A DNA stretch of 64,000 nt. Source: Candidatus Aldehydirespirator sp. GTDB taxonomy: Bacteria > Actinomycetota > Acidimicrobiia > Acidimicrobiales > Aldehydirespiratoraceae. Position numbers and translations under genes: made by a program. The stretch is from the NCBI GenBank assembly GCA_965261105.1, contig CBDHCM010000006.1, positions 1,284,405 through 1,348,404 of the forward strand. The letters run 5' to 3'. Of the stretch, positions 35,337-60,480 are shown in pieces (within the stretch, counting starts at the first letter, position 1; the number at the start of each line of letters is the position of its first letter). The notes beneath the pieces are model-generated. The model did no database searches, was not told the origin of the DNA, and saw only the letters and a list, made by a program, of their open reading frames with translations.

Positions 35337-35415
35337 TGCCGCGACAAGTGTCACTATGTGCAGCCCGATGCCACCGATGGGGACACGTGCCGCCATAAGT
35401 GTCACTATGTGCAGC
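35337..35415. promoter_or_regulatory. two ~28-bp direct repeats upstream of fic (candidate operator/promoter)
   Basis: TGCCGCgacAAGTGTCACTATGTGCAGC lies at 35337-35364 and TGCCGCcatAAGTGTCACTATGTGCAGC at 35388-35415, a period of 51 bp. The second copy ends 24 nt before the fic GTG. Confidence 0.45.
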
Positions 35416-35438
35416 AGAAGGGTGTTAGGCTGGGCCGC

Positions 35439-37779: not shown

Positions 37780-38109
37780 CGGCCGCTCGATCGGCGAGGC
37801 CGTCCGCAAGCGGCTGCTAGCAGCCCGTGGCTGGTTTCATCTCGTGCCTGCTCCAAGCCCGGCCGCGGTCGCCGAGTGGTGTGGAGGGCCGGGCATGATC
37901 CGCTGAGGCACATCGCAGGAGTCTGCTATGTCTGCTGGGGTGAGCATCGGCGCGACTGCGCAGGGCCGAGCCGACCACAGCGGCGGGATCCGCGCCGCTG
38001 GTCTTGGCCTGAAGTATGCAAGAGTTACGGCGATATAAATAACATGGCTAATATTTGATAAACTCAGTTGAGCCGGTGGGGACATCGACCGAGGAGCCCG
38101 TCCATGGAT

Positions 38110-38192
38110 CTGCTAGTTGTGACAACCCAAGACGTTGTCCTGGTCAAAGCTCCCTGCCCATGCCGGCTACCGCTCTTCGCTCCCCAGCGCGT
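38110..38192 (-). pseudogene. relic of the 5' end of a second copy of the PT-linker anchor gene (start codon ATG changed to ACG)
   Basis: 38133-38196 aligns to 42549-42612, the start of gene 41652..42608, with about 6 mismatches. CAT at 42606-42608 (ATG) corresponds to CGT at 38190-38192. Homology fades by about 38110. Confidence 0.6.
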
Positions 38193-38196
38193 CGAA

Positions 38197-39465
38197 TCAG
38201 CTGGCGAAGTATAGCTGTATGACCGCTAGCACGTCGTCTTTGGTGATGCGGCCGGCGGAGTAGTCGGCCACCGCCGCGATGGTCTCGTCACGGTCGATCA
38301 CTTCGTTGTTGTTCACGTCGTAGGAACCTGAGTGCACGTCGGTGACTGTGATGGTCACCGCGACGGTCGCGCTCGCGCCCGATGAGTCCGTGGCAGTGAC
38401 GGTCACCTCGTAGACGTTCTTCTCGGCCTCGTAGTCCAGTGCCGTCTCGGCCCGGACCCTGATCTGGCCCGTGTCGGCGTCGATGGTGAACAAGGCCGCG
38501 TCGGCGCCGCCGAGCGTGTAGGTCAGCGCGCCGCCGTCCTGGCCCATGACTGCGACCGGATCGCCCACGACCTCGCCCTCGCCGGTGTTCTCCGCCACGC
38601 TTCTCTCTGTCGCGTCGTCGACGACGGTCACGGCCACCCCGGCGACGGTCACCCCGGCGTACTCGGCGGCGCTGCCGGCGGCCACCACCATGTGGGTGAT
38701 GGAGGCCATTTCGCCAACTGCGTCGGTGTCGTGGGCCGCGGCCACTGTCACCGTCTGGGCCGTGCTCCACGTGGCCGTGGTGAAGGTCAGGGTGCTCTGG
38801 TCGCCGGACGCCGCGGCGTCGGTGTCCACCGTCACGTCGGCGTTGTCGCTGGTCACGCTGATCACCACGTCAGAGGCGGGCTCGGCGTCGAGGACCACCG
38901 TGTAGGCGTTGGCGCCGCCCTCGGCCACCGCCACTTCGGTGGCCGACACCGTCACCCCCGGCCTCTCGTTCACGGTGACAAAGAAGCGCAGGCCAACACG
39001 GTCGCCGTCGGAATCGGTCGCGGTATAGGTGAACCGGGTCCGCGGCAACGCCGCGCCGGGCGTGCCGGTGATGGTGAGGTTCGAGTTGAAGCGCAGCCCC
39101 GGCGGCAGGTCCGGCGACAGGCTGTACCGCAGGCCGCCGTCACCCCGAAGAGCGGAGGGCAGGCTCACCGTCCCCACGTCTTCGCCCACCGTGTAGATCT
39201 GGTCGCCCACCGTACGCGAGGCGAACGTCGGAGTCTGGCCGGACGAACCTTCTCCGTCGGACGAACCTTCTGCTCCGGGCGAACCTTCTCCTCTGGGCGA
39301 ACCTTCTCCTCCGGGCGAACCACCACCGGGCGAACCTTCTCCTCCGGACGAATCACCGCCGGACGAATCACCGTCGGACGAATCACCGTCGGACGAATCA
39401 CCGTCGGACGAATCACCGCCGGACGGCGGGGTTACGGTGTCGTCGTCGGTGACGGTCACCGCCAC
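38197..39465 (-). CDS. 3' part of the shorter paralogous surface protein (Gly/Ser/Asp linker, He_PIG-like Ig domain, one ~110-aa repeat, cadherin domain, EF-hand/dockerin-like C-terminus)
   Basis: 422 aa, about 95% identical to the C-terminal ~420 aa of ORF 42613..50910. It is separated from ORF 39456..41423 only by a frameshift caused by an apparent 64-nt deletion at about 39505. Confidence 0.75.
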   Translation of the reverse strand: MAVTVTDDDTVTPPSGGDSSDGDSSDGDSSDGDSSGGDSSGGEGSPGGGSPGGEGSPRGEGSPGAEGSSDGEGSSGQTPTFASRTVGDQIYTVGEDVGTVSLPSALRGDGGLRYSLSPDLPPGLRFNSNLTITGTPGAALPRTRFTYTATDSDGDRVGLRFFVTVNERPGVTVSATEVAVAEGGANAYTVVLDAEPASDVVISVTSDNADVTVDTDAAASGDQSTLTFTTATWSTAQTVTVAAAHDTDAVGEMASITHMVVAAGSAAEYAGVTVAGVAVTVVDDATERSVAENTGEGEVVGDPVAVMGQDGGALTYTLGGADAALFTIDADTGQIRVRAETALDYEAEKNVYEVTVTATDSSGASATVAVTITVTDVHSGSYDVNNNEVIDRDETIAAVADYSAGRITKDDVLAVIQLYFAS

Positions 39466-41423
39466 CGCGGCGATGGTCGCGTTGTCGAACTCGTTGGCGC
39501 TGCGGCGACGGTCACCGTCTGGGCTGTGCTCCAGTTGCTGTTGGTGAAGGTCAGGGTGGCCGGAGTCGCCGTCACGTCGGCGCTGCCGCGCTTGGTGACG
39601 CTGATCACCACGTTGGAGGAGGGCTGCCCGTTCAGCGCCACCGTGTAGGTTCCGCTGCCGCCCTCGTCCACCGTCAGCGCGGACTTGGACACCGTCGCCC
39701 CGCCGTCGTCGTCGGTGACGGTCACCGCCACCGCGGCGATGGTCGCGGTGGCGAACTCGTCGGCGCTTTCGGCAGCGACCACAGTGTGCCTGATGGTTGC
39801 CGTTTCGTTCAGCGCGTCGGCGTCCTGGGCCGCGGCCACCGTCACCGTCTGCGCCGTGTTCCAGTCGCTCGGGGTGAAGGTCAGCGGCCTACCCGCCGGG
39901 GCCACGCTGATACGGCCCCCGCGCTGATACCACCTCGAAGGCGCCGTCACGTCCGCGTTGTCGCTGGTCAACTTGATCACCACGGCATAGGAGGGCTCGG
40001 CGTCCAGGGTCACCGCGTAGGAGCCGATGCCGCCCTCGGCCACCGTCAGCGTGGACGGCGACACCGTCACCGTGTAGGTGTCGTCGTCGGTGACGGTCAC
40101 CGCCACCGTGTCGATGGTCGCCACGACGTACTCGTTGGAGCTGCTGCTGGACAGCACAAAATGGCTGATGGAGGCCGTTTCGGCGTGCCGGGCGTCGGCG
40201 TCGTGGGCGGCGGCCACCGTCACCGTCTGCGCTGTGTTCCAGTTGCTCGGGGTGAAGGTCAGGGTGGCCGGAGACACCGTCACGTCGCTGCTGCCGCTCT
40301 TGTTGACGCTGATCACCACGTTGGAGACGGGCGGTACGGTCAGCTTCACGGTGTACGTGGCGCTGCCGCCCTCGGCCACCGTCAGCGCGGACGCTGACAC
40401 CGTCACCCCGGCGGTCTCGTTTTCGACGATGAACGCCAACATCTGGCTCGTCCCATAGTCGTATTCGTCGGCGCTTGCGGCGGCCACCACCGTGTGGGTG
40501 ATGATCGCCGCGTCGCTCCGGGCGTCGGCGTCCTGGGCGACGGCCACCGTCACCGTCCGCGCCGTGTTCCAGTTGCTCGGGGTGAAGGTCAGCCCGTTCT
40601 GGTTGCCGGACGTCGCCGCGTCGGTGTCCAGCGTCACGTTCGCTTTGTCGCTGGTCACCGTGATCACCACGTTGGAGGTGGGCAGTACGGCCAGCTTCAC
40701 GGTGTACGTGGCGCTGCCGCCCTCGGCCACCCTCAGCGAGGTCTTGGACATGATCAACCCGGGGATGTCGTCGTCGACGACGACCACCGCCACCGCGACG
40801 ATGATTGCGCCGTCGTACGCGTCGGCGCTGCTGGCGGCCACCACCGCGTGGCTGATGGAACCATTGTCGTACACCTTGTCGCTGTCCTGGGCCGCGGACA
40901 CCGTCACCGTCTGCGCCGTGTTCCAGTTGCTCGGGGTGAAGGTCAGCGTGGCCGGAGACACCGTCACGTCGCTGCTGCCGCTCTTGGTGACGCTGATCAC
41001 CACGTTGGAGGCGGGCACTAGGGTCAGCTTCACGGTGTACGTGGCGCTGCCGCCCTCGGCCACCCTCAGCGAGGTCTTGGACACGATCATCCCATATACG
41101 GCCTGCAGCGCCACCCTGGCGTCGTGGAAGGACGCGGCATCGCCGCCGCCCAGCGTGTAGGTCAGCACGTCGCTGTCGGCGTCCATGGCCCCGACCGGCG
41201 CGCCGCCGTCTGCGCCTGCGGCGGCGTTCTCGGCCACCGACCGGGCGCCGTCCTCGCTGGACGGGAACGCCGGCTGGCTGTTGGCCGTCTGCGCCGAGGC
41301 GCTACCCAGGGTCAGGAAGGCAGCAAGCGGAACCCATACCGCCGCCAGCAACAGCATCCGCGGCCAGCGGTGACCTGTTTCTGAGAAAAACTCGGAGGGT
41401 GGCCGAGGAATTGAAGAAGTCAT
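39456..41423 (-). CDS. 5' part of the shorter paralogous surface protein (signal peptide, truncated cadherin domain, about five ~110-aa repeats)
   Basis: 655 aa. MLLLAAVWVPLAAFLTLGSASAQTANSQPAFPSSEDGARSVAEN... parallels the N-terminus of the giant gene; an alternative start is ATG 41357. The repeats read SLRVAEGGSATYTVKL..P.SNVVI.V...LTFTPSNWNTAQTVTV.AAQD.D. Confidence 0.75.
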   Translation of the reverse strand: MTSSIPRPPSEFFSETGHRWPRMLLLAAVWVPLAAFLTLGSASAQTANSQPAFPSSEDGARSVAENAAAGADGGAPVGAMDADSDVLTYTLGGGDAASFHDARVALQAVYGMIVSKTSLRVAEGGSATYTVKLTLVPASNVVISVTKSGSSDVTVSPATLTFTPSNWNTAQTVTVSAAQDSDKVYDNGSISHAVVAASSADAYDGAIIVAVAVVVVDDDIPGLIMSKTSLRVAEGGSATYTVKLAVLPTSNVVITVTSDKANVTLDTDAATSGNQNGLTFTPSNWNTARTVTVAVAQDADARSDAAIITHTVVAAASADEYDYGTSQMLAFIVENETAGVTVSASALTVAEGGSATYTVKLTVPPVSNVVISVNKSGSSDVTVSPATLTFTPSNWNTAQTVTVAAAHDADARHAETASISHFVLSSSSSNEYVVATIDTVAVTVTDDDTYTVTVSPSTLTVAEGGIGSYAVTLDAEPSYAVVIKLTSDNADVTAPSRWYQRGGRISVAPAGRPLTFTPSDWNTAQTVTVAAAQDADALNETATIRHTVVAAESADEFATATIAAVAVTVTDDDGGATVSKSALTVDEGGSGTYTVALNGQPSSNVVISVTKRGSADVTATPATLTFTNSNWSTAQTVTVAAAPTSSTTRPSPRWR

Positions 41424-41651: not shown

Positions 41652-42608
41652 CTACCGCCGACGTCTGCGGACGTACACGGTGATGGCAGCGGCCGCCGAG
41701 ACGGCGAATGCGCCTAGCAGAGCGATCAACCCTACTGGCGGGCCTTCCTCTGGTTCTGGTGCCGTGGTGGGGGTGGTTGTGGTTGTGGGTGCCGTGGTTG
41801 TGGTGGGTTCGGGTTCTGTGGTTGTGGTGGGTTCGGGTTCTGTGGTTGTGGGTGCCGTGGTTGTGGTGGGTGCGGGTTCTGTGGTTGTGGTGGGTGCGGC
41901 GGTGGTGGTGGGTGCGGGTTCTGTGGTTGTGGTTGTGGTGGGTGCGGCGGTGGTGGTGGGTGCGGGTTCTGTGGTTGTGGTTGTGGTGGGTGCGGCGGTG
42001 GTGGTGGGTGCGGCGGTGGTGGTGGGTGCGGCGGTGGTGGTGGGTGCGGCGGTGGTGGTGGGTGCGGCGGTTGTGGTGGGTGCGGCGGTGGTGGTGGGTG
42101 CGGCGGTGGTGGTGGGTGCGGCGGTGGTGGTGGGTGCGGGTTCGGGGCCGACCCTGATGCTGGATTCGCCGTCTACCGCCTGTTCGGCCTTGTTCGTGTC
42201 AAGCAGGATCCCTGAGAAGGAGTAGACGCCCGCCGCGCTGGGGGCGGCGACCGTATACGTGAAGCGCTCGTCGCCCAGCAGCGTGAAGGCGACGGTCGCG
42301 CCATTGACTGCCACCGCTGCTTGGGACAGGTCGGAGCCTTCGTAGCTGAACCCAGACGGCAGCGTTTCCACGACCTGGCCGAAGCCGCCGTATCCGGCGG
42401 CGGTGATCGTGACCTCCAACGCCCCGCCGGGAAGGACCCACGGCGCGGAGAAGGACCGGACGGCCTTGTGCGACGTCGCCTCCACGGGAGCGGAATGCAA
42501 CAGACCCGCGAATCCGGCAACGGCCACGGCGACCGCTAACAACGCCAACGTTCTCCTGGTCAAAGCTCCCCGCCCATGCCGGCTACCGCTCTTCACTCCC
42601 CAGCGCAT
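41652..42608 (-). CDS. secreted single-domain protein with long Pro/Thr linker and C-terminal TM anchor plus RRRRR tail
   Basis: 318 aa with signal peptide TRRTLALLAVAVAVAGFAGLLHSAPVEA. A ~130-aa beta-sandwich-like domain follows (SFSAPWVLPGGALEVTITAAGYGGFGQVVETLPSGFSYEGS...FTYTVAAPSAAGVYSFSGILLD). Next comes ~130 aa of APTTTA/TTTTTEPAPTTTA repeats, ending PEPEEGPPVGLIALLGAFAVSAAAAITVYVRRRRR. The start lies 4 nt after the giant gene stop. Confidence 0.8.
   Translation of the reverse strand: MRWGVKSGSRHGRGALTRRTLALLAVAVAVAGFAGLLHSAPVEATSHKAVRSFSAPWVLPGGALEVTITAAGYGGFGQVVETLPSGFSYEGSDLSQAAVAVNGATVAFTLLGDERFTYTVAAPSAAGVYSFSGILLDTNKAEQAVDGESSIRVGPEPAPTTTAAPTTTAAPTTTAAPTTTAAPTTTAAPTTTAAPTTTAAPTTTAAPTTTTTTEPAPTTTAAPTTTTTTEPAPTTTAAPTTTTEPAPTTTTAPTTTEPEPTTTTEPEPTTTTAPTTTTTPTTAPEPEEGPPVGLIALLGAFAVSAAAAITVYVRRRRR
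41750..42150. repeat. 18-nt-based low-complexity tandem repeats encoding the Pro/Thr linker
   Basis: GGTGGGTGCGGCGGTGGT and variants are iterated on the plus strand, giving (APTTTA)n on the minus strand. Confidence 0.9.
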
Positions 42609-42612
42609 CGAA

Positions 42613-45600
42613 TCAGCCGGAGAAGTATAGCTGTATCACCGCTAGCACGTCGTCTTTGGTGATTCGGCCGGCGAAGTAGTCGGCCACCGCCGCGATGGTC
42701 TCGTCACGGTCGACCACTTCGTTGTTGTCCACGTCGTAGGAACCTGAGTGCACGTCGGTGACTGTGATGGTCACCGCGACGGTCGCGCTCGCGCCCGATG
42801 AGTCCGTGGCAGTGACGGTCACCTCGTAGACGTTCTTGTCGGCCTCGTAGTCCAGTGCCGTCTCGGCCCGGACCCTGATCTGGCCCGTGTCGGCGTCGAT
42901 GGTGAACAAGGCCGCGTCGGCGCCGCCGAGCGTGTAGGTCAGCGCGCCGCCGTCCTGGCCCATGACTGCGACCGGACCGCCCACGACCTCGCCCTCGCCG
43001 GTGTTCTCCGCCACGCTCCTCTCTGCCACGTCGTCGTCGTCGGCGACGGTCACAGCCACCCCGGCGACGGCCACCGCGGCGTACTCGGCGGCGCTGCCGG
43101 CGGCCACCACCATGTGCGAGACGGCGGCCGCGTCGTCCACCGCGTCGGCGTCGTGGGCCGCGGCCACCGTCACCGTCTGGGCCGTGCTCCACGTGGCCGT
43201 GGTGAAGGTCAGGGTGCTCTGGTCGCCGGACGCCGCGGCGTCGGTGTCCACCGTCACGTCGGCGTTGTCGCTGGTCACGCTGATCACCACGTCAGAGGCG
43301 GGCTCGGCGTCGAGGACCACCGTGTAGGCGTTGGCGCCGCCCTCGGCCACCGCCACCTCGGTGGCCGACACCGTCACCCCCGGCCTCTCGCTCACGGTGA
43401 CAAAGAAGCGCAGGCCAACACTGTCGCCGTCGGAATCGGTCGCGGTGTAGGTGAACCGGGTCCGCGGCAACGCCGCGCCGGGCGTGCCGGTGATGGTGCG
43501 GTTCGAGTTGAAGCGCAGCCCCGGCGGCAGCCCCGGCGACAGGCTGTACCGCAGGCCGCCGTCACCCCGAAGAGCGGAGGGCAGGCTCACCGTCCCCACA
43601 TCCTCACCCACCGTATAGATCTGGTCGCCCACCGTACGCGAGGAGAACGTCGGAATCTGGTCGGGCGAAACACCGCCGCCGGGCGAACCACCACCGCCGG
43701 GCGAACCACCGCCACCGGGCGAACCACCGCCACCGGGCGAACCACCACCGGACGGCGGGGTTACGGTGTCGTCGTCGGCGACGGTCACCGCCACCGCGGC
43801 GATGGTCGCGTTGTCGAACTCGTTGGCGCTGCGGGAGGCGTTGACGGCGTGGGCGATGGATGCCGTGTCGTTCGCGGTGTCGGTGTCGTGGGCGGCCCGC
43901 ACCGTCACCGTCTGGGCTGTGCCCCAGTTGCTGGTGGTGAAGGTCAGGGTGGCCGGCGTTGCCGTCACGTCGCTGCTGCCGCTCCTGGTGACGTTGATCA
44001 CCACGTTGGATGCGGGCTGGGCGTCGAGCACCACGGTGTAGGTGTTGTTGGCGCCCTCGGCGACTGTCAGCGCGGACTTGGACACCGTCACCGCGGCGTC
44101 GTCGTCGGTGACGGTGACGCTCACCGCGGCGATGGTCACGGTGTCGTACTCGTTGGCGCTTTGGGAGGCGTTGACGGTGTGGGTGATGGATGCTGTGTCG
44201 TTCGCGGTGTCGGTGTCGTGGGCGGCCCGCACCGTCACCGTCTGGGCTGTGCTCCAGTTGCTCGGGGTGAGCGTCAGGGTGGCCGGCGTCGCGGTCACGT
44301 CGCTGCTGCCGCTCCTGGTGACGTTGATCACCACGTTGGATGCGGGCTGGGCGTTCAGCACCACGGTGTAGGTGTTGTTGGCGCCCTCGCCCACTGTCAG
44401 CGTGGACTTGGACACGGTCACCGCGGCGGTGTCGTCGTCGGTGACGGACACGCTCACCGCGGCGACGGTCACGGTGTCGTACTCGTTGGCGCTGCGGGAG
44501 GCGTTGACGGCGTGGCTGATGGAGGCGGTGTCGTTCGCCGTGTCGGCGTCCTGGGCGGCCCGCACCGTCACCGTCTGGGCTGTGCCCCAGTTGCTGGCAG
44601 TGAAGGTCAGGGTGGCCGGAGTCGCGGTCACGTCGCTGCTGCCGCTTTTGGTGACGTTGATCACCACATTGGCGGAGGGCTGGGTGTTCAACACCACCGT
44701 GTAAGTCTTGTTGGCGCCTTCGGCCACCGTCACCGCAGACTCAGACACGGTCACCGCGGCGGTGTCATCGTCGGTCACAGACACCGCCACCGAGGCGACG
44801 ATAGTCACACCGTCGTACTCGTTGGCGCTTCGAGAGGCGATGACGGGGTGGGCGATGGAGGCTGTGTCGTTCACAGCGTCAGCGTCTTGGGCAGCAGCCA
44901 CCGTCACCGTCTGAGCTGTGCTCCAGTTGCTGGTGGTGAAAGTCAAAGTGGCCGGCGACGCGGTCACGTCGCTGCTGCCGCTCCTGGTGACGTTGATCAC
45001 CACATTGGCGGAGGGCTGGGTGTTCAACACCACCGTGTAAGTCTTGTTGGCACCCTCAGCCACCGTCACCGAGGACGCGGACAGGGTAACCCCGGCGGAG
45101 TCATCGTCGGTCACAGACACCGCCACCGCGGCGATAGTCACGTTGTCATACTCGTCGGCGCTTGAGGCAGCCACCACCGCGTGGGCGATGGAGGCTGTGT
45201 CGTTCACAGCGTCGGCGTCTTGGGCGGCGGCCACGGTCACCGTCTGAGTTGTGCTCCAGGTGCTGGAAGTGAAAGTCAAAGTGGCCGGCGACACCGTCAC
45301 GTCGCTGCTGCCGCTCCTGGTGACGTTGATCACCACATTGGCGGAGGGCTGGGTGTTCAACACCACCGTGTAAGTCTTGTTGGCGCCCTCAGCCACCGTC
45401 ACCGAGGACGCGGACAGGGTAACCCCGGCGGTGTCATCGTCGGTCACAGACACCGCCACCGCGGCGATAGTCACGTTGTCATACTCGTCGGCGCTTGAGG
45501 CAGCCGCCACCGCGTGGGCGATGGAGGCTGTGTCGTTCACAGTGTCGGCGTCTTGGGCGGCGGCCACGGTCACCGTCTGAGTTGTGCTCCAGGTGCTGGT

Positions 45601-48600
45601 GGTGAAAGTCAAAGTGGCCGGCGAGACCGTCACGTCGTTGCTGCCGCTCCTGGTGACGTTGATCACCACATTGGCGGAGGGTTGGGTGTTCAACACCACC
45701 GTGTAAGTCTTGTTGGCGCCTTCAGCCACCGTCACCGAGGACGCGGACAGGGTAACCCCGGCGGTGTCGTCGTCGTCGACAGACACTGTCACCGCGGCGA
45801 TAGTCACAGCATCGTACTCGTCGGCGCTTGAGGCAGCCACCACCGCGTGGGCGATGGAGGCTGTGTCGTTCACAGTGTCGGCGTCTTGGGCGGCGGCCAC
45901 GGTCACCGTCTGAGTTGTGCTCCAGTTGCTGGTGGTGAAAGTCAAAGTGGCCGGCGAGACCGTCACGTCGCTGCTGCCGCTCCTGGTGACGTTGATCACC
46001 ACATTGGCGGAGGGCTGGGTGTTCAACACCACCGTGTAAGTCTTGTTGGCACCCTCAGCCACCGTCACCGCGGTTTCGGACAGGGTAACCCCGGCGGTGT
46101 CATCGTCGGTCACAGACACCGCCACCGCGGCGATAGTCACGTTGTCATACTCGTCGGCGCTTGAGGCAGCCACCACCGCGTGGGCGATGGAGGCTGTGTC
46201 GTTCACAGTGTCGGCGTCTTGGGCGGCGGCCACGGTCACCGTCTGAGTTGTGCTCCAGTTGCTGGTGGTGAAAGTCAAAGTGGCCGGCGACGCGGTCACG
46301 TCGCTGCTGCCGCTCCTGGTGACGTTGATCACCACATTGGCGGAGGGCTGGGTGTTCAACACCACCGTGTAAGTCTTGTTGGCACCTTCGGCCACCGTCA
46401 CCGCGGTTTCGGACAGGGTAACCCCGGCGGTGTCATCGTCGGTCACAGACACCGCCACCGCGGCGATGGTCACGGCATCGTACTCGTCGGCGCTTGAGGC
46501 AGCCACCACCGCGTGGGCGATGGAGGCTGTGTCGTTCACAGTGTCGGCGTCTTGGGCGGCGGCCACGGTCACCGTCTGAGTTGTGCTCCAGTTGCTGGTG
46601 GTGAAAGTCAAAGTGGCCGGCGTCGCGGTCACGTCGCTGCTGCCGCTCCTGGTGACGTTGATCACCACATTGGCGGAGGGCTGGGTGTTCAACACCACCG
46701 TGTAAGTCTTGTTGGCACCTTCGGCCACCGTCACCGCGGTTTCGGACAGGGTAACCCCGGCGGTGTCATCGTCGGTCACAGACACCGCCACCGCGGCGAT
46801 GGTCACGGCATCGTACTCGTCGGCGCTTGAGGCAGCCACCACCGCGTGGGCGATGGAGGCTGTGTCGTTCACAGCGTCAGCGTCTTGGGCAGCAGCCACC
46901 GTCACCGTCTGAGCTGTGCCCCAGTTGCTGGAAGTGAAGGTCAGGGTGGCCGGAGTTGCGGTCACGTCGCTGCTGCCGCTCCTGGTGACGTTGATCACCA
47001 CGTCGGATGCGGGCTGGGTGTTCAACACCACCGTGTAAGTCTTGTTGGCACCCTCAGCCACCGTCACCGAGGACGCGGACAGGGTAACCGCGGCGGTGTC
47101 GTCGTCGGTGACGGTGACGGTCACCGCGGCGATGGTCGCGTTGTCGTACTCGTTGGCGCTTTCGGCGGCGTTGACGGCGTGGCTGATGGAGGCTGTGTCG
47201 TTCGCGGTGTCGGCGTCGTGGGCGGCGGCGACGGTCACTGTCTGGGCTGTGCTCCAGTTGATCGGGGTGAAGGTCAGGGTGTCTTGGCTGCCGGACGTCC
47301 CCGTGTCGGTATCCACCGTCACGTCGGAATTGTTGCTGGTCACCGCGATCACCACGTTGGAGGAGGGCTGGGCGTCAAGCACCACCGTGTAGGTGTTGTT
47401 GTTGCCCTCGGCGACTGTCAGCGTGGACTTGGACACGGTCACCGCGGCGGTGTCGTCGTCGGTGACGGTGACGGTCACCGCGGCGATGGAGGCGTTGTCG
47501 TACTCGTTGGCGCTGCGGGAGGCGTCGACGGTGTGGGTGATGGAGGCTGTGTCGTTCGCGGTGTCGGCGTCGTGGGCGGCGGCGACGGTCACCGTCTGGG
47601 CTGTGCTCCAGTTGCTGGTGGTGAAGGTCAGGGTGGCCGGCGTCGCGGTCACGTCGCTGCTGCCGCTCCTGGTGACGTTGATCACCACGTCAGAGGAGGG
47701 CTGGGCGTCGAGCACCACCGTGTAGGTGTTGTTGTTGCCCTCGGCGACTGTCAGCGTGGACTTGGACATGGTCACCGCGGCGGTGTCGTCGTCGGTGACG
47801 GTGACGGTCACCGCGGCGATGGTGGCGTTGTCGTACTCGTTGGCGCTGCGGGAGGCGTCGACGGTGTGGGTGATGGAGGCTGTGTCGTTCGCGGTGTCGG
47901 CGTCGTGGGCGGCGGCGACGGTCACTGTCTGGGCTGTGCTCCAGTTGTTGGTGGTGAAGGTCAGGGTGGCCGGCGTCGCGGTCACGTCGCTGCTGCCGCT
48001 CTTGGTGACGTTGATCACCACGTCAGAGGAGGGCTGGGCGTCGAGCACCACCGTGTAGGAGCCGCTGCCGCCCTCGTCCACCGTCAGCGCGGACTTGGAC
48101 ACCGTCACCGCGGCGTCGTCGTCGGTGACGGTGACGGTCACCGCGGCGATGGTCACGTTGACGTACTCGTTGGCGCTGCGGGAGGCGTCGACTGCGTGGG
48201 CGATGGATGCCGTGTCGTTCGCCGCGTCGGCGTCCTGGGCGGCGGCCACGGTCACCGTCTGGGCCGTGCCCCAGCTACTGGTGGTGAAAGTCAAAGTGGC
48301 CGGCGACACCGTCACGTCGCTGCTGCCGCTCTTGGTGACGTTGATCACCACGTCAGAGGAGGGCTGGGCGTCGAGCACCACCGTGTAGGAGCCGCTGCCG
48401 CCCTCGTCCACCGTCAGCGCGGACCCAGACACCGTCACCGCGGCGTCGTCGTCGGTGACGGACACGCTCACCGCGGCGATAGTCACAGCATCGTACTCGT
48501 CGGCGCTTGAGGCAGCCACCACCGCGTGGGCGATGGATGCCGTGTCGTTCGCCGCGTCGGCGTCTTGGGCGGCGGCCACGGTCACCGTCTGAGTTGTGCT

Positions 48601-50910
48601 CCAGTTGCTGGTGGTGAAAGTCAAAGTGGCCGGCGACGCGGTCACGTCGCTGCTGCCGCTTCTGGTGACGTTGATCACCACATTGGCGGATGGCTGGGTG
48701 TTCAACACCACCGTGTAAGTCTTGTTGGCGCCTTCGGCCACCGTCACCGAGGACGCGGACAGGGTAACCCCGGCGGAGTCATCGTCGGTCACAGACACCG
48801 CCACCGCGGCGATAGTCACGTTGTCATACTCGTCGGCGCTTGAGGCAGCCACCACCGCGTGGGCGATGGAGGCTGTGTCGTTCACAGTGTCGGCGTCTTG
48901 GGCGGCGGCCACGGTCACCGTCTGAGTTGTGCTCCAGGTGCTGGTGGTGAAAGTCAAAGTGGCTGGCGAGACCGTCACGTCGCTGCTGCCGCTCCGAGCC
49001 ACACTGATCACCACATTGGCGGATGGCTGGGTGTTCAACACCACCGTGTAAGTCTTGTTGGCGCCTTCGGCCACCGTCACCGAGGACGCGGACAGGGTAA
49101 CCCCGGCGGTGTCGTCGTCGTCGACAGACACCGCCACCGCGGCGATAGTCACAGCATCGTACTCGTCGGCGCTTGAGGCAGCCACCACCGCGTGGGCGAT
49201 GGAGGCTGTGTCGTTCACAGTGTCGGCGTCTTGGGCAGCAGCCACCGTCACCGTCTGAGTTGTGCTCCAGGTGCTGGTGGTGAAAGTCAAAGAGGCCGGC
49301 GAGACCGTCACGTCGCTGCTGCCGCTCCGAGCCACACTGATCACCACATTGGCGGAGGGCTGGGTGTTCAACACCACCGTGTAAGTCTTGTTGGCGCCTT
49401 CGGCCACCGTCACCGAGGACGCGGACAGGGTAACCCCGGCGGTGTCGTCGTCGTCGACAGACACCGCCACCGCGGCGATAGTCACAGCATCGTACTCGTC
49501 GGCGCTTGAGGCAGCCACCACCGCGTGGGCGATGGAGGCTGTGTCGTTCACAGCGTCAGCGTCTTGGGCAGCAGCCACCGTCACTATCTGAGCTGTGCCC
49601 CAGGTGCTGGTGGTGAAAGTCAAAGTGGCCGGCGAGACCGTCACGTCGCTGCTGCCGCTCCTGGTGACGTTGATCACCACATTGGCGGAGGGCTGGGTGT
49701 TCAACACCACCGTGTAAGTCTTGTTGGCACCCTCAGCCACCGTCACCGAGGACGCGGACAGGGTAACCCCGGCGGAGTCATCGTCGGTCACAGACACCGC
49801 CACCGCGGCGATAGTCACAGCATCGTACTCGTCGGCGCTTGAGGCAGCCACCACCGCGTGGGCGATGGAGGCTGTGTCGTTCAGCGCGTCGGTGTCGTGG
49901 GCGGCGGCCACGGTCACTGTCTGGGCTGTGTCCCAGGTGCTGGTGGTGAAGGTCAGGGTGGCCGGCGAGACCGTCACGTCGGCGCTGCCGCTCCTGGTGA
50001 CGTTGATCACCACGTCAGATGCGGGCTGGGCGTTCAGCACCACCGTGTAGGTGCTGTTGGCGCCCTCGTCCACTGTCAGCGTGGACTCAGACACGGTCAC
50101 CGCAGCGGCGTCGTCGTCGGTGACGGTCACGGTCACCGCGGCGATGGTCGCGTTGTCGTACTCGTTGGCGCTTTGGGAGGCGTTGACGGCGTGGCTGATG
50201 GAGGCCGTGTCGTTCGCGGTGTCGGCGTCGTGGGCGGCGGCGACGGTCACTGTCTGGGCTGTGTCCCAGGTGCTGGTGGTAAAGGTCAGGGTGGCCGGCG
50301 TCGCCGTCACCTCGCTGCTGCCGCTCCTGGTGACGTTGATCACCACGTCAGATGCGGGCTGGGCGTCGAGCACCACCGTGTAGGTGCTGTTGTTGCCCTC
50401 GGCGACTGTCAGCGTGGACTCGGACACGCTCACCGCGGCGTCGTCGTCGGTGACGGTGACGGTCACCGCGGCGATGGCGGCTGCGTCGTACTCGTCGGCG
50501 CTGCGGGAGGCGGCGACGGCGTGGGTGATGGAGGCTGTGTCGTTCGCCGCGTCGGTGTCGTGGCCGGCGGCGACGGTCACTGTCTGGGCTGTGTCCCAGT
50601 TGCTGGTGGTGAAGGTCAGGGTGGCCGGCGTCGCGGTCACCTCGCTGCTGCCGCTCCTGGTGACGTTGATCACCACGTCCGATGAGGGCTGGGCGTCGAG
50701 CACCACCGTGTAGGTGTTGTTGGCGCCCTCGGCGACTGTCAGCGTGGACTTGGACACGCTCACCGCGGCGTCGTCGTCGGTGACGGTGACGGTCACCGCG
50801 GCGATGGCGGCTGCGTCGTACTCGTCGGCGCTGCGGGAGGCGGCGACGGCGTGGGTGATGGAGGCTGTGTCGTTCGCCGCGTCGGTGTCGTGGCCGGCGG
50901 CGACGGTCAC
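42613..50910 (-). CDS. distal (3') 2765 codons of the giant repetitive surface protein
   Basis: It begins inside a repeat unit, so there is no genuine N-terminus. About 21 units of ~110-111 aa read VT(V/L)S.S.(L/V)TV.EG...TYTVVL..QP...VVI.V..SGSS.VT..PATLTFT.S.W.T.QTVTVAA..D.D..NDTASI.H.V....SA.EYD...IAAV.V.V.DDD. These are followed by a (GGGSP)n linker, an He_PIG-like domain (LPPGLRFNSNRTITGTP), one more repeat, a cadherin domain and an EF-hand-like tail. Confidence 0.85.
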   Translation of the reverse strand: MTVAAGHDTDAANDTASITHAVAASRSADEYDAAAIAAVTVTVTDDDAAVSVSKSTLTVAEGANNTYTVVLDAQPSSDVVINVTRSGSSEVTATPATLTFTTSNWDTAQTVTVAAGHDTDAANDTASITHAVAASRSADEYDAAAIAAVTVTVTDDDAAVSVSESTLTVAEGNNSTYTVVLDAQPASDVVINVTRSGSSEVTATPATLTFTTSTWDTAQTVTVAAAHDADTANDTASISHAVNASQSANEYDNATIAAVTVTVTDDDAAAVTVSESTLTVDEGANSTYTVVLNAQPASDVVINVTRSGSADVTVSPATLTFTTSTWDTAQTVTVAAAHDTDALNDTASIAHAVVAASSADEYDAVTIAAVAVSVTDDDSAGVTLSASSVTVAEGANKTYTVVLNTQPSANVVINVTRSGSSDVTVSPATLTFTTSTWGTAQIVTVAAAQDADAVNDTASIAHAVVAASSADEYDAVTIAAVAVSVDDDDTAGVTLSASSVTVAEGANKTYTVVLNTQPSANVVISVARSGSSDVTVSPASLTFTTSTWSTTQTVTVAAAQDADTVNDTASIAHAVVAASSADEYDAVTIAAVAVSVDDDDTAGVTLSASSVTVAEGANKTYTVVLNTQPSANVVISVARSGSSDVTVSPATLTFTTSTWSTTQTVTVAAAQDADTVNDTASIAHAVVAASSADEYDNVTIAAVAVSVTDDDSAGVTLSASSVTVAEGANKTYTVVLNTQPSANVVINVTRSGSSDVTASPATLTFTTSNWSTTQTVTVAAAQDADAANDTASIAHAVVAASSADEYDAVTIAAVSVSVTDDDAAVTVSGSALTVDEGGSGSYTVVLDAQPSSDVVINVTKSGSSDVTVSPATLTFTTSSWGTAQTVTVAAAQDADAANDTASIAHAVDASRSANEYVNVTIAAVTVTVTDDDAAVTVSKSALTVDEGGSGSYTVVLDAQPSSDVVINVTKSGSSDVTATPATLTFTTNNWSTAQTVTVAAAHDADTANDTASITHTVDASRSANEYDNATIAAVTVTVTDDDTAAVTMSKSTLTVAEGNNNTYTVVLDAQPSSDVVINVTRSGSSDVTATPATLTFTTSNWSTAQTVTVAAAHDADTANDTASITHTVDASRSANEYDNASIAAVTVTVTDDDTAAVTVSKSTLTVAEGNNNTYTVVLDAQPSSNVVIAVTSNNSDVTVDTDTGTSGSQDTLTFTPINWSTAQTVTVAAAHDADTANDTASISHAVNAAESANEYDNATIAAVTVTVTDDDTAAVTLSASSVTVAEGANKTYTVVLNTQPASDVVINVTRSGSSDVTATPATLTFTSSNWGTAQTVTVAAAQDADAVNDTASIAHAVVAASSADEYDAVTIAAVAVSVTDDDTAGVTLSETAVTVAEGANKTYTVVLNTQPSANVVINVTRSGSSDVTATPATLTFTTSNWSTTQTVTVAAAQDADTVNDTASIAHAVVAASSADEYDAVTIAAVAVSVTDDDTAGVTLSETAVTVAEGANKTYTVVLNTQPSANVVINVTRSGSSDVTASPATLTFTTSNWSTTQTVTVAAAQDADTVNDTASIAHAVVAASSADEYDNVTIAAVAVSVTDDDTAGVTLSETAVTVAEGANKTYTVVLNTQPSANVVINVTRSGSSDVTVSPATLTFTTSNWSTTQTVTVAAAQDADTVNDTASIAHAVVAASSADEYDAVTIAAVTVSVDDDDTAGVTLSASSVTVAEGANKTYTVVLNTQPSANVVINVTRSGSNDVTVSPATLTFTTSTWSTTQTVTVAAAQDADTVNDTASIAHAVAAASSADEYDNVTIAAVAVSVTDDDTAGVTLSASSVTVAEGANKTYTVVLNTQPSANVVINVTRSGSSDVTVSPATLTFTSSTWSTTQTVTVAAAQDADAVNDTASIAHAVVAASSADEYDNVTIAAVAVSVTDDDSAGVTLSASSVTVAEGANKTYTVVLNTQPSANVVINVTRSGSSDVTASPATLTFTTSNWSTAQTVTVAAAQDADAVNDTASIAHPVIASRSANEYDGVTIVASVAVSVTDDDTAAVTVSESAVTVAEGANKTYTVVLNTQPSANVVINVTKSGSSDVTATPATLTFTASNWGTAQTVTVRAAQDADTANDTASISHAVNASRSANEYDTVTVAAVSVSVTDDDTAAVTVSKSTLTVGEGANNTYTVVLNAQPASNVVINVTRSGSSDVTATPATLTLTPSNWSTAQTVTVRAAHDTDTANDTASITHTVNASQSANEYDTVTIAAVSVTVTDDDAAVTVSKSALTVAEGANNTYTVVLDAQPASNVVINVTRSGSSDVTATPATLTFTTSNWGTAQTVTVRAAHDTDTANDTASIAHAVNASRSANEFDNATIAAVAVTVADDDTVTPPSGGGSPGGGGSPGGGGSPGGGGSPGGGVSPDQIPTFSSRTVGDQIYTVGEDVGTVSLPSALRGDGGLRYSLSPGLPPGLRFNSNRTITGTPGAALPRTRFTYTATDSDGDSVGLRFFVTVSERPGVTVSATEVAVAEGGANAYTVVLDAEPASDVVISVTSDNADVTVDTDAAASGDQSTLTFTTATWSTAQTVTVAAAHDADAVDDAAAVSHMVVAAGSAAEYAAVAVAGVAVTVADDDDVAERSVAENTGEGEVVGGPVAVMGQDGGALTYTLGGADAALFTIDADTGQIRVRAETALDYEADKNVYEVTVTATDSSGASATVAVTITVTDVHSGSYDVDNNEVVDRDETIAAVADYFAGRITKDDVLAVIQLYFSG

Positions 50911-53900
50911 TGTCTGGGCTGTGTCCCAGTTGCTGGTGGTGAAGGTCAGGGTGTGCGGTCACCTCGCTGTTCCTGGTGACGGCGTCCGATGAGGGCTGGG
51001 CGTCGAGCACCACCGTGTAGGTGCTGTTGTTGCCCTCGGCGACTGTCAGCGTGGACTTGGACACGCTCACCGCGGCGTCGTCGTCGGTGACGGTGACGGT
51101 CACCGCGGCGATGGCGGCGTTGTCGTACTCGTCGGCGCTTTGGGAGGCGTCGGCGGCGTGGGTGATGGAGGCTGTGTCGTTCGCGGCGTCGGCGTCGTGG
51201 GCGGCGGCGACGGTCACTGTCTGGGCTGTGTCCCAGTTGCTCGGGGTGAAGGTCAGGGTGGCCGGCGTTGCGGTCACGTCGCGGTTGTCGCTGGACACCG
51301 CGATCACCACGTCAGAGGAGGGCTGGGCGTTCAGCACCACCGTGTAGTTGCTGTTGGCGCCCTCGGCCACTGTCAGCGTGGTTTCGGACACGGTCACCGC
51401 GGCGGTGTCGTCGTCGGTGACGGTCACCGCCACCGCGGCGATGGTCGCGTTGTCGTACTCGGCGGCGCTTTCGGCGTCCACCACCGCGTGGGCGATGGAG
51501 GCTGTGTCGTTCGCGGTGTCGGTGTCGTGGGCGGCGGCGACGGTCACTGTCTGGGCTGTGTCCCAGTTGTTGGTGGTGAAGGTCAGGGTGGCCGGCGTTG
51601 CGGTCACGTCGCTGCTGCCGCTCTTGGTGACGTTGATCACCACGTCCGATGAGGGCTGGGCGTCGAGCACCACTGTGTAGGTGTTGTTGGCGCCCTCGGC
51701 CACTGTCAGCGTGGTTTCGGACACGGTCACCGCGGCGGTGTCGTCGTCGGTGACGGTCACCGCCACCGCGGCGATGGTCGCGTTGTCGTACTCGGCGGCG
51801 CTTTCGGCGTCCACCACCGCGTGGGCGATGGAGGCTGTGTCGTTCGCGGTGTCGGTGTCGTGGGCGGCGGCGACGGTCACTGTCTGGGCTGTGTCCCAGT
51901 TGCTCGGGGTGAAGGTCAGGGTGGCCGGCGTTGCGGTCACGTCGCGGTTGTCGCTGGACACCGCGATCACCACGTCAGAGGAGGGCTGGGCGTCGAGCAC
52001 CACTGTGTAGGTGTTGTTGGCGCCCTCGGCCACTGTCAGCGTGGTTTCGGACACGGTCACCGCGGCGGTGTCGTCGTCGGTGACGGTCACCGCCACCGCG
52101 GCGATGGTCGCGTTGTCGTACTCGGCGGCGCTTTCGGCGTCCACCACCGCGTGGGCGATGGAGGCTGTGTCGTTCGCGGTGTCGGTGTCGTGGGCGGCGG
52201 CGACGGTCACTGTCTGGGCTGTGTCCCAGTTGTTGGTGGTGAAGGTCAGGGTGGCCGGCGTTGCGGTCACGTCGCTGCTGCCGCTCTTGGTGACGTTGAT
52301 CACCACGTCAGAGGAGGGCTGGGCGTCGAGCACCACTGTGTAGGTGTTGTTGGCGCCCTCGGCCACTGTCAGCGTGGTTTCGGACACGGTCACCGCGGCG
52401 GTGTCGTCGTCGGTGACGGTGACGGTCACCGCGGCGATGGTCGCGTTGTCGTACTCGGCGGCGCTTTGGGAGGCGTTGACGGCGTGGGTGATGGAGGCTG
52501 TGTCGTTCACCGCGTCGGTGTCGTGGGCGGCGGCGACGGTCACTGTCTGGGCTGTGCTCCAGTTGTTGGTGGTGAAGGTCAGGGTGGCCGGCGTCGCGGT
52601 CACGTCGCTGCTGCCGCTCTTGGTGACGTTGATCACCACGTTGGATGCGGGCTGGGCGTCGAGCACCACTGTGTAGGTGTTGTTGTTGCCCTCGGCGACT
52701 GTCAGCGTGGACTTGGACACGGTCACCGCGGCGGTGTCGTCGTCGGTGACGGTGACGGTCACCGCGGCGATGGTCACGTTGTCGTACTCGTTGGCGCTTT
52801 CGGCGGCGTCGACGGTGTGGGTGATGGAGGCTGTGTCGTTCACCGCGTCGGTGTCGTGGGCGGCGGCGACGGTCACTGTCTGGGCCGTGTCCCAGCTACT
52901 GGTGGTGAAAGTCAAAGTGGCCGGCGACACCGTCACCTCGCTGCTGCCGCTCCTGGTGACGTTGATCACCACGTTGGATGCGGGCTGGGCGTCGAGCACC
53001 ACTGTGTAGGTGCTGTTGTTGCCCTCAGCGACTGTCAGCGTGGACTTGGACACGGTCACCGCGGCGTCGTCGTCGGTGACGGACACGCTCACCGCGGCGA
53101 TGGTCGCGTTGTCGTACTCGTTGGCGCTGCGGGAGGCGTCGACGGTGTGGGTGATGGAGGCTGTGTCGTTCGCCGCGTCGGTGTCGTGGCCGGCGGCGAC
53201 GGTCACTGTCTGGGCCGTGTCCCAGCTACTGGTGGTGAAGGTCAGGGTGGCCGGAGTCGCGGTCACGTCGCTGCTGCCGCTCCTGGTGACGTTGATCACC
53301 ACGTCAGAGGAGGGCTGGGCGTCGAGCACCACTGTGTAGGTGTTGTTGTTGCCCTCGGCGACTGTCAGCGTGGCCTTGGACACGCTCACCGCGGCGTCGT
53401 CGTCGGTGACGGTGACGGTCACCGCGGCGATGGCGGCTGCGTCGTACTCGTCGGCGCTGCGGGAGGCGTCGACGGCGTGGGTGATGGATGCTGTGTCGTT
53501 CGCCGCGTCGGTGTCGTGGCCGGCGGCCACGGTCACTGTCTGGGCTGTGTCCCAGGTGCTGGTGGTGAAGGTCAGGGTGGCCGGAGTCGCGGTCACGTCG
53601 GCGCTGCCGCTCTTGGTGACGTTGATCACCACGTTGGATGCGGGCTGGGCGTCGAGCACCACTGTGTAGGTGTTGTTGTTGCCCTCGGCGACTGTCAGCG
53701 TGGCCTTGGACACGGTCACCGCGGCGGTGTCGTCGTCGGTGACGGTGACGGTCACCGCGGCGATGGTCACGTTGTGGTACTCGTTGGCGCTGCGGGAGGC
53801 GTCGACGGCGTGGGTGATGGAGGCCGTGTCGTTCACCGCGTCGGCGTCGTGGCCGGCGGCGACGGTCACTGTCTGGGCTGTGTCCCACGTGCTGGTGGTG

Positions 53901-59900: not shown

Positions 59901-60480
59901 GCGGCGTCGGCGTCGTGGGGGGCGGACACCTTCGCCGTCTGCGGCGTGTTCCAGTTGTCCGGGGTGAAGAGCATGACGGCCTGGTCGCCTTCCCTGCCCG
60001 CGTCGGCGTCCACCCCCACGTCCGGGTTCTTGCGGTCAATGCGAATCACCACGTCGGCGGCGGGCTGGGCGTCGAGCACCACGGTGTAGGTGGCGCTGGC
60101 GCCCTCGGCCACCGTCAGCATGGTTTCGGACACCGTCACCCCGGCGGTGTCGTCGTCGGTGACGGTCACGGCCACCCCGGCGATGGTGGCGGTGTCGTAC
60201 TCGTCGGCGCTTTCGGCGGGCACCACCGCGTGGGCGATGGCGGCCGAGTCGTTCACCGCGTCGGCGTCCTGGGCGGCGGCCACCGTCACCGTCTGCGCCG
60301 TGTCCCAGTTGGACCGGGTGAAGGTCAGCCGGTCCTGGTTGCCGGACGTCGCCGCGTCGGTGTCCAGCGTCACGTCGGAACTGCCGCCGGCGGTCACCGT
60401 GATCACCACGTCGGAGGCGGGCTGGCCGTCCAGCACCACGGTGTAGGCGGCGCGGCCGCCCTCGGCCAACGTCAGCGCGG
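43330..60480. repeat. tandem array of about 50 coding repeats, period 327-351 bp (mostly 330/333 bp)
   Basis: The periodicity shows in the antisense ORF ladder (stops every 330-333 bp from 43766 to 58694) and in the protein. Sub-arrays at about 44.7-47.0 kb and 48.4-49.9 kb are near-identical. Confidence 0.95.

Follow-up and report, generated by a model that had tools for sequence, protein, structure and literature searches.

A C-terminal EF-hand module and a stalked β-sandwich as a putative docking pair for giant adhesins in a Candidatus Aldehydirespirator genome

Multi-thousand-residue 'eukaryote-like' adhesins without LPXTG, SLH or transmembrane anchors pose the question of how monoderm or wall-less marine symbionts retain them. 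A 64,000-nucleotide (nt) stretch of a Candidatus Aldehydirespirator sp. genome (contig CBDHCM010000006.1; ~68% GC; hereafter, the window) raises this question: it comes from what is probably a sponge-symbiont actinobacterium, judging from genus name and taxonomy, and its reverse strand carries a giant adhesin gene and a shorter paralogue. An earlier note on this DNA had remarked that both large proteins lack an LPXTG or transmembrane anchor, and our motif and hydrophobicity scan of the four large open reading frames (ORFs) of the two adhesin genes bears this out. No LP.[TSA]G motif occurs in these ORFs, no transmembrane-like segment lies outside the N-terminal signal peptide, and a Pfam scan of the window adhesins finds no SLH or LysM anchor motifs. 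Both proteins end in a 45-amino-acid (aa) module, the tail, and the giant adhesin gene is followed by a gene for a small protein, the anchor, with a single β-sandwich domain. We lean, by a modest degree, towards reading the two modules as a non-homologous analogue of cohesin–dockerin tethering, in which the EF-hand-type tail would bind the anchor sandwich and hold the adhesin on the cell. The features on which this reading is built are the following:

42613..62854, reverse strand: giant adhesin gene, ~6.7k aa if read through
42616..42750, reverse strand: tail 1, C-terminus of the giant adhesin, HSGSYDVDNNEVVDRDETIAAVADYFAGRITKDDVLAVIQLYFSG, then TGA at 42613-42615
38197..41423, reverse strand: shorter paralogue, ~1075 aa
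38200..38334, reverse strand: tail 2, C-terminus of the paralogue, HSGSYDVNNNEVIDRDETIAAVADYSAGRITKDDVLAVIQLYFAS, then a stop codon
41652..42608, reverse strand: anchor gene, 318 aa from ATG, predicted type I membrane protein
42141..42479, reverse strand: β-sandwich ('socket') domain of the anchor, aa 53-165 of ORF 41655-42635 by the anchor hidden Markov model (HMM)
41736..42140, reverse strand: Pro/Thr/Ala-rich stalk of ~135 aa with TTAAP repeats; tandem repeats of period 18/36/54/63 at 41778-42139
41655..41735, reverse strand: C-terminal transmembrane helix VGLIALLGAFAVSAAAAITVYV and RRRRR stop-transfer tail, read from the sequence

The two tails are 89% identical over 45 aa, and a tail HMM run on the six-frame translation of the window finds exactly two copies (E=1.9e-27 each), so the nearly identical ending first pointed out at these positions is firmly established. 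In tail 1, the putative Ca2+ loop DVDNNEVVDRDE (D-V-D-N-N-E-V-V-D-R-D-E) is followed by a helix, a short degenerate loop and a second helix. The loop has EF-hand ligands at positions 1, 3, 5, 9 and 12, a hydrophobic residue at position 8 and Glu at position 12; position 6 is Glu instead of Gly, as in 19% of the family. The proposed EF-hand pattern with a helix behind it therefore holds, and the wider family matches EF-hand models. A second segment of the tail amounts only to a shortened degenerate loop, 3 aa shorter and without ligands (AG-RITKDD). By score, the window tails stay below threshold on EF-hand_6 (14.8-16.3 bits against a cut-off of 25; E 0.008-0.025), and relatives rise above EF-hand Pfam cut-offs, with 37.4 bits for homologue P0053 and 47.6-50.1 bits for P0054 (hereafter, P numbers denote homologous proteins and L numbers comparison loci).

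A profile built from the two window tails and the tail of P0044, searched against 1.84 billion cluster representatives, retrieves 1735 clusters at E<=1e-3 and 414 at E<=1e-10 (clusters at 50% identity), with the consensus LxxRYDANxNGxIDRSEVIxAINDYLFGEgxxITRAEVIxLINLYLFG and the retained motifs DY(F/L)xG and LY(F/L)xG. In 241 parsed tails, the loop reads D1 (99%), N/D3, N/D/S5, G6 (68%), I8 (90%), D/E9 (91%) and E12 (241/241), a logo in which the parsing pattern had restricted some loop positions beforehand. EF-hand_6 matches 41 and EF-hand_1 36 of 60 diverse members at E<=0.01, and the family profile searched against the PDB returns only canonical EF-hand proteins, led by EF-hand 4 of calerythrin (1nya, E=1.3e-11). 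The AlphaFold 2 (AF2) model of homologue P0229 shows a helix-loop-helix arrangement for the tail: a short helix (107-112), the loop, a 13-residue helix (122-134), then a second, shorter-looking turn of loop and the last helix (143-155), with a predicted local distance difference test score (pLDDT) of 83-94.

Dockerin_1 (PF00404) matches none of the 60 members at E<=0.01 and neither window tail at E<=1. Together with the purely canonical EF-hand matches in the PDB, this tells against homology of the tail to dockerins. Its profile matches place the tail in the EF-hand superfamily, as an uncurated extracellular family and not as a dockerin; conservation of the ligands suggests that it binds Ca2+. 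NCBIfam has no model for the family, and the 45-aa tail on its own, as query of a word-indexed homology search, yielded no candidates.

Of the best 150 tail proteins, 101 have the module no more than 6 aa from the C-terminus, and the domains that precede it vary widely in the family (He_PIG, cadherin, Big_2, LRR, fn3 and S8 peptidase). Another layout is seen in P0054, P0057-P0060, P0063, P0065, P0070 and P0076, where 2-4 tandem modules directly follow the signal peptide; there a pair of Cys residues is conserved in the second copy (C..YD...VI.CYF), and the protein continues with a PT linker and further domains.

The anchor gene starts 4 nt after the giant adhesin stop codon, although comparison with homologues beginning MTRKALALLAV indicates that its start may be TTG 42563 instead of ATG 42608. 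The encoded protein consists of a leader (...LALLAVAVAVAGFAGLLHSAPVEA), a ~113-aa domain, the stalk, a hydrophobic helix and RRRRR, and the ending ...YVRRRRR recurs in its homologues. AF2 predicts the domain to be an all-β sandwich (pLDDT 95.6); the idea of a cell-anchored β-sandwich on a stalk at 41652-42608 thus fits each part of the predicted protein. The sandwich HMM finds exactly one copy in the window, the motifs ETLPxGF and FSG are conserved in the family, and an exact-sequence look-up of the window anchor gave no identical record.

Foldseek places 9ifr, a DUF11 CLIPPER structure, first for both sandwich models (E 2.6e-6 and 1.2e-6; template-modelling (TM) score ~0.6), followed by BslA, YcnI and the C-domains of antigen I/II (AgI/II). 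Cohesins rank lower (2xdh at 14 and 7, 3ul4_A at 48; TM score 0.41-0.56), so the original comparison to a cohesin gives way to DUF11/CLIPPER. A Pfam scan of the window anchor protein gives no match, including to cohesin (PF00963) and PF01345, and the protein does not match TIGR01451 either. Searching with HMMs for dockerin and cohesin, as the earlier note had proposed, thus returned nothing for either the window tails or the anchor. Among anchor homologues, precomputed PF01345 matches occur in many, P0094 matches at E=0.001, and P0200 passes the TIGR01451 cut-off of 24 with 27.2 bits. We take the anchor sandwich, from its predicted fold and the profile matches of its homologues, to be a DUF11/CLIPPER-like immunoglobulin (Ig) fold, CnaA-like and not a cohesin. 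CLIPPER domains have been described as building the stalks of fibrillar adhesins, in many cases with an isopeptide bond between Lys and Asn (bioRxiv 10.1101/2025.04.25.650565). An alignment of 12 anchor domains has no invariant Lys for such a bond, which suggests an isopeptide-less subgroup; covalent capture of the isopeptide/SpyCatcher kind by the sandwich was dropped on the same ground.

Are the tail and the sandwich coupled beyond this locus? Scanning one genome per species with the sandwich alignment gave 78 loci of 12 kb, and most comparison sequences here and below are metagenome-assembled genomes (MAGs). Nearly all hosts are Dehalococcoidia/SAR202 MAGs; a Ca. Aldehydirespiratoraceae MAG contributes two loci, an ANME-1 archaeon one and a Candidatus Poriferisodalis MAG (Acidimicrobiia), at 96% identity, another. 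Across two bacterial phyla, 70/84 (83%) of the standalone anchor ORFs lie <600 nt downstream of a same-strand ORF that ends in a tail, an anchor-side statistic, as the loci were picked through the anchor. Typically, 134-143 nt separate the end of the tail from the start of the sandwich, a near-constant spacing which means that the tail gene and the anchor gene abut; few tails lie elsewhere in the 12-kb loci, so that their placement before anchors is not due to chance. A C-terminal transmembrane-like segment is present in 72/84 anchor ORFs. Sandwich copies number one in 60 of these ORFs, two in 4, three in 14, four in 5 and five in 1. Anchors with 3-5 sandwiches, a stalk and a transmembrane helix (L043, L045-L048, L061-L063, L070-L075, L077, L079-L081, L084 and L085) are each preceded by one tail-terminated gene, a scaffoldin-like layout.

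The same gene order occurs in loci L001-L004 and L007 and can be approached from the tail side. A tail-first scan of Joint Genome Institute (JGI) metagenomes turned up three loci. One has a Big_2 adhesin with a C-terminal tail and, starting 12 nt further on, a three-sandwich protein; another holds a sandwich–tail fusion; and the third is on a contig that ends just past the tail. L088, a tail-first metagenome match, has a lower GC content and an unrelated adhesin body with the same tail–anchor arrangement. Tail-only proteins were checked at four distinct loci, and sandwich sequence lies within 10 kb in 3/4. Among the loci with inspected gene tables, none showed a third conserved partner gene. 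The ANME-1 locus (L076, QBUL01000085.1, 42% GC) has sandwich homologues of 47% identity in several adjacent genes and no tail detected in its 6.9 kb, indicating that the sandwich family reaches past the tail-associated bacterial lineages.

The two modules also meet within single proteins. In 42/43 proteins that have both, the sandwich lies 2-10 aa before the tail, and such fusions make up at least 10 of the best 150 tail proteins; they include small proteins such as P0229, built solely from an anchor-type leader, sandwich and tail, and an S8 peptidase–LRR–fn3 protein. The fused order (sandwich, tail) is the opposite of the gene order (tail, stop, sandwich), so the adjacency of the genes is not a trivial artefact of gene fission, and this explanation was ruled out. 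The tail also varies together with the sandwich: over 66 unique pairs, tail distance correlates with the distance of the adjoining sandwich (r=0.66, Mantel p=5e-4) more strongly than with that of the domain preceding the tail (r=0.41). The partial correlation is 0.57 for the sandwich with the preceding domain controlled, and 0.10 for the preceding domain with the tail controlled. The tail and the anchor sandwich are thus strongly supported as a conserved pair at the level of both genomes and domains. This agrees with the functional pairing that the earlier note had read from the window, and the cross-genome co-occurrence that it proposed to look for is found in the 70 paired anchors; abutment, fusions, co-divergence and the range of 1-5 sandwich copies all point the same way, and so does a tail that keeps its place beside the sandwich when the domain in front of it changes.

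In the mechanism that we propose, the adhesin would be exported through its Sec signal peptide, and its last 45 residues would fold into three helices, the first of them short, with a canonical 12-residue Ca2+-loaded loop between the first two and a degenerate loop between the last two. The anchor leader would be cleaved and the sandwich displayed at the tip of the ~135-aa Pro/Thr-rich stalk, with the C-terminal transmembrane helix and the cytoplasmic poly-Arg (positive-inside) keeping the protein in the membrane. The Ca2+-loaded tail would then plug non-covalently into the sandwich, tethering the adhesin by its C-terminus with the cadherin/GSDH (glucose/sorbosone dehydrogenase) head distal; we infer the binding, its Ca2+ dependence and this orientation. 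The paralogue would have lost its own anchor copy, leaving one anchor to serve both window adhesins. Elsewhere, anchors with 2-5 sandwiches may hold several cargos as scaffolds, and proteins with both sandwich and tail may act as adaptors or chain-formers. The broader picture is one to which we give somewhat less than even credence: a modular Ca2+-dependent plug and socket, convergent with cohesin–dockerin, that would display giant cadherin-, fn3- and LRR-type adhesins and peptidases on membrane-anchored stalks, employ multi-socket scaffolds and socket-plus-plug adaptors for assemblies of higher order, and have spread between phyla by horizontal transfer of the junction module. Its hosts would be marine, largely sponge-associated Dehalococcoidia and Acidimicrobiia with some other lineages, the sponge link again coming from genus name and taxonomy.

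The history of the junction between tail and anchor can be followed in the window itself, where a duplication connects the two adhesin genes:

42548..44092 versus 38132-39699, reverse strand: duplicated block, 94% identity over 1475 aligned columns
38132..38196, reverse strand: what remains of a second copy of the intergenic spacer and anchor-gene start, cut off at 38132

The duplicated block holds He_PIG, an Ig-like domain, cadherin, the tail and the anchor start. Similarity carries on for 65 nt after the stop codon, reaching the first part of the anchor gene before it breaks off, so the relic of a second anchor gene, which the earlier note had recognized, is real; the boundaries that it gave, 38110 and 42549, move to 38132 and 42548. 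An AT-rich stretch at ~38040-38100 marks the end of the duplication. Past it, ~1.3 kb downstream of the anchor relic, lies a Fic/DOC-family gene on the forward strand (35358-36782; PF02661, E=4.7e-22).

Beyond the window, the junction block (last cadherin, tail, anchor leader and sandwich; 42144-43023) is 82-84% nt-identical to Dehalococcoidia loci L014, L015 and L020 and 78% nt-identical to L011 and L013, and adhesin bodies and stalks differ between the window and the Dehalococcoidia MAGs despite the similar block. In the closest relative of the window, the Ca. Poriferisodalis MAG (Acidimicrobiia), the block is 85-89% identical. The 78-84% identity to Dehalococcoidia, given a closest relative in Acidimicrobiia, points to horizontal transfer of the junction module between phyla. 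In L089 (6307-10239), L094 (6307-10239), L090 (15974-17691) and L005 (7597-8259), the tail is followed by the anchor leader and only the first ~25 aa of the sandwich, after which comes a frame change or another gene, the same breakpoint as in the window relic at 38132-38196. With this breakpoint shared by several genomes, the place where tail meets anchor start has the look of a recombination hot spot that shuffles adhesin bodies.

Several observations weigh against docking. The module is N-terminal or internal in 49 of the best 150 tail proteins, and association seen from the tail side is clearly weaker than from the anchor side, with many cargos per anchor. Tails without an anchor directly downstream occur in L008, L018, L033, L065 (extra tails), P0313, P0300 and L092. 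The co-divergence of tail and sandwich could stem from linkage alone, and the reading frame is disrupted in both tail-bearing window genes. Domains with the fold of the sandwich usually serve fibrillar adhesins as passive parts of the stalk (bioRxiv 10.1101/2025.04.25.650565). Lastly, AF2 of the natural fusion P0229 (predicted TM score 0.68; pLDDT 80-83 at the junction) predicts no rigid interface in cis. Low junction confidence is what one expects if the relative orientation of the two domains is undefined. In cellulosomal adaptors, moreover, the dockerin is not known to bind a cohesin of the same protein, which makes the fusion result neutral for docking.

Could the pair work together without touching? 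The tail might be a Ca2+-dependent stabilizer or a module for another ligand (wall, S-layer, host glycan or other protein), and the anchor a short stalk protein or mini-adhesin in its own right, simply co-expressed with the adhesin; we hold this explanation as a whole to be unlikely, although it deserves serious attention. DUF11/CLIPPER domains are typically stalk domains, the fold search returns generic Ig-like structures, the AF2 model of the fusion lacks confident packing between domains, and tails exist without neighbouring anchors as well as at N-terminal or internal positions, all of which would fit. Such co-function leaves unexplained, however, why 42 fusions join sandwich to tail by a 2-10-aa linker, why 83% of anchors stand directly behind a tail and why the tail tracks the sandwich sequence rather than its own protein body. 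Shared history in place of recognition is a different possibility, and one that we regard as improbable: the block of last domain, tail, spacer, leader and sandwich start would be chiefly a recombination junction that allows bodies to be swapped or duplicated in front of a resident gene. The window duplication does stop 65 nt into the anchor region, tails in L089, L090, L094 and L005 run into the leader and ~25 aa of sandwich before the frame changes, and the block is 78-84% nt-identical across phyla with differing bodies and stalks. Recombination needs DNA similarity alone, though, and would not account for the strict conservation of Ca2+ ligands, the fusions in opposite order or the multi-sandwich anchors; it is also compatible with docking rather than exclusive of it.

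We consider it very unlikely that a dedicated machinery recognizes the tail as a C-terminal signal for secretion, sorting or processing, in the manner of the C-terminal domains of type I and type IX secretion systems (T1SS/T9SS) or exosortase tags. Its position <=6 aa from the C-terminus in 101 of the best 150 tail proteins and the many kinds of secreted cargo would suit a signal of this sort; the 49 proteins that carry the module elsewhere, including as 2-4 tandem copies after a signal peptide, would not. Moreover, the window adhesins have no transmembrane or hydrophobic tag, the loci with examined gene tables reveal no conserved machinery gene, and every cargo seen has its own N-terminal signal peptide. 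That the modules are true dockerin and cohesin homologues, only highly diverged, strikes us as scarcely credible. Dockerins are themselves EF-hand-related loop-helix duplications, the best single-sequence PDB match of the tail is 8x3a, a dockerin-like 'serine protease' chain (E=0.1), and cohesins 2xdh and 3ul4_A appear among the fold matches. Yet Dockerin_1 is absent from all 60 members, the PDB profile search gives only canonical EF-hand proteins, loop position 12 is Glu and not Asp in 241/241 tails with only one loop intact, and the sandwich is closer to DUF11/CLIPPER than to any cohesin (cohesin TM score 0.41-0.56).

The adhesins that would be docked in this way are themselves elaborate. 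The giant adhesin comprises, in order, a signal peptide, cadherin, a GSDH β-propeller (PF07995, E=1.2e-66), ~47 Ig-like repeats, a Gly/Ser/Pro linker, He_PIG, an Ig-like domain, cadherin and the tail. Its N-terminal 'head' (61000-62854) of cadherin and GSDH propeller is an unusual tip for a fibrillar adhesin, and L092 also holds a giant fn3/GSDH gene that resembles it. The repeats form a highly regular tandem array at 43764-59466, with ~47 copies of a 333-bp unit at 87% matches; each unit encodes a 111-aa Ig-like repeat with weak, fn3_6/LapA-like Pfam matches. The paralogue has its own signal peptide, Ig-like repeats and the same succession of Gly/Ser/Pro linker, He_PIG, Ig-like domain, cadherin and tail.

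Of the earlier view of two large proteins, the endings stand and the intact state does not. The giant adhesin appears as two ORFs that overlap at 50348-50958; across this overlap a single frame stays repeat-like and the alternative frame is Arg-rich junk, so that we read it as one ~6.7k-aa gene whose frame is disrupted (frameshift or stop) near 50959. Misassembly of the 333-bp repeat array may have produced this disruption, or the gene may be a real pseudogene. In the paralogue, the frame changes between 39456 and 39888, that is, between the 655-aa and 422/563-aa ORFs, and for both window adhesin genes assembly error or pseudogenization may be the cause.

How closely does the proposed pair resemble known systems? 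In function, cohesin–dockerin tethering comes closest. Dockerins consist of two duplicated ~22-residue segments, each an intact Ca2+ loop plus helix, usually with Asp at position 12. As in cohesin–dockerin systems, a small loop-helix module with (here, putative) Ca2+ binding is found at the C-terminus of diverse secreted cargos, a β-sandwich module occurs in 1-5 copies on a cell-anchored, linker-rich scaffold, some proteins carry both modules, as adaptor scaffoldins do, and cargo and anchor genes cluster. The differences are equally clear. Tail and sandwich have no sequence relation to Dockerin_1 or Cohesin; the tail has one canonical Glu12 loop and a degenerate second in 45 aa, against ~70 in dockerins; the receptor is a DUF11/CLIPPER-like Ig fold held by a transmembrane helix rather than by sortase or SLH; and the hosts are, by taxonomy, sponge-associated Acidimicrobiia and Dehalococcoidia, not cellulolytic Firmicutes. 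Dockerins bind cohesins in a Ca2+-dependent way, as the tail would bind the sandwich. The nearest case is that of Ruminococcus, where an adhesin of the CttA/ScaE type is reportedly anchored by its XDoc module on a cell-anchored cohesin.

The component families and other anchors offer further comparisons. Like canonical EF-hands (EF-hand_1/_6/_7, PF00036/PF13405/PF13499; calerythrin 1nya), the tail has the loop D-x-N/D-x-N/D-G-x-I-D/E-x-x-E between flanking helices; unlike them, it is extracellular, with a single functional loop in a 45-aa terminal module on adhesins, peptidases, LRR and fn3 proteins. The sandwich resembles DUF11/CLIPPER in its best match (9ifr), in the PF01345/TIGR01451 matches of its homologues and in its tandem copies. 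It differs in that the window sandwich forms the distal end of a small, dedicated membrane protein, on top of a low-complexity stalk, is specifically coupled to an EF-hand tail and lacks the invariant Lys. LPXTG/sortase, SLH and LysM anchors perform the same task of retaining a secreted giant adhesin on the cell; their motifs are not found in the window adhesins, and retention would here use a separate membrane protein. Neither the tail family nor its pairing with the sandwich was found under any name or description in Pfam, NCBIfam, the source annotations or the literature searched.

If the docking pair is real, it would answer how adhesins are retained for a large set of proteins, given the 1735 tail clusters at 50% identity, and two uncurated module families would gain a function. 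The cohesin–dockerin principle would then have been invented a second time, independently and from non-homologous parts. A small affinity pair of 45 aa and 110 aa, possibly switchable by Ca2+, would also be useful in protein engineering.

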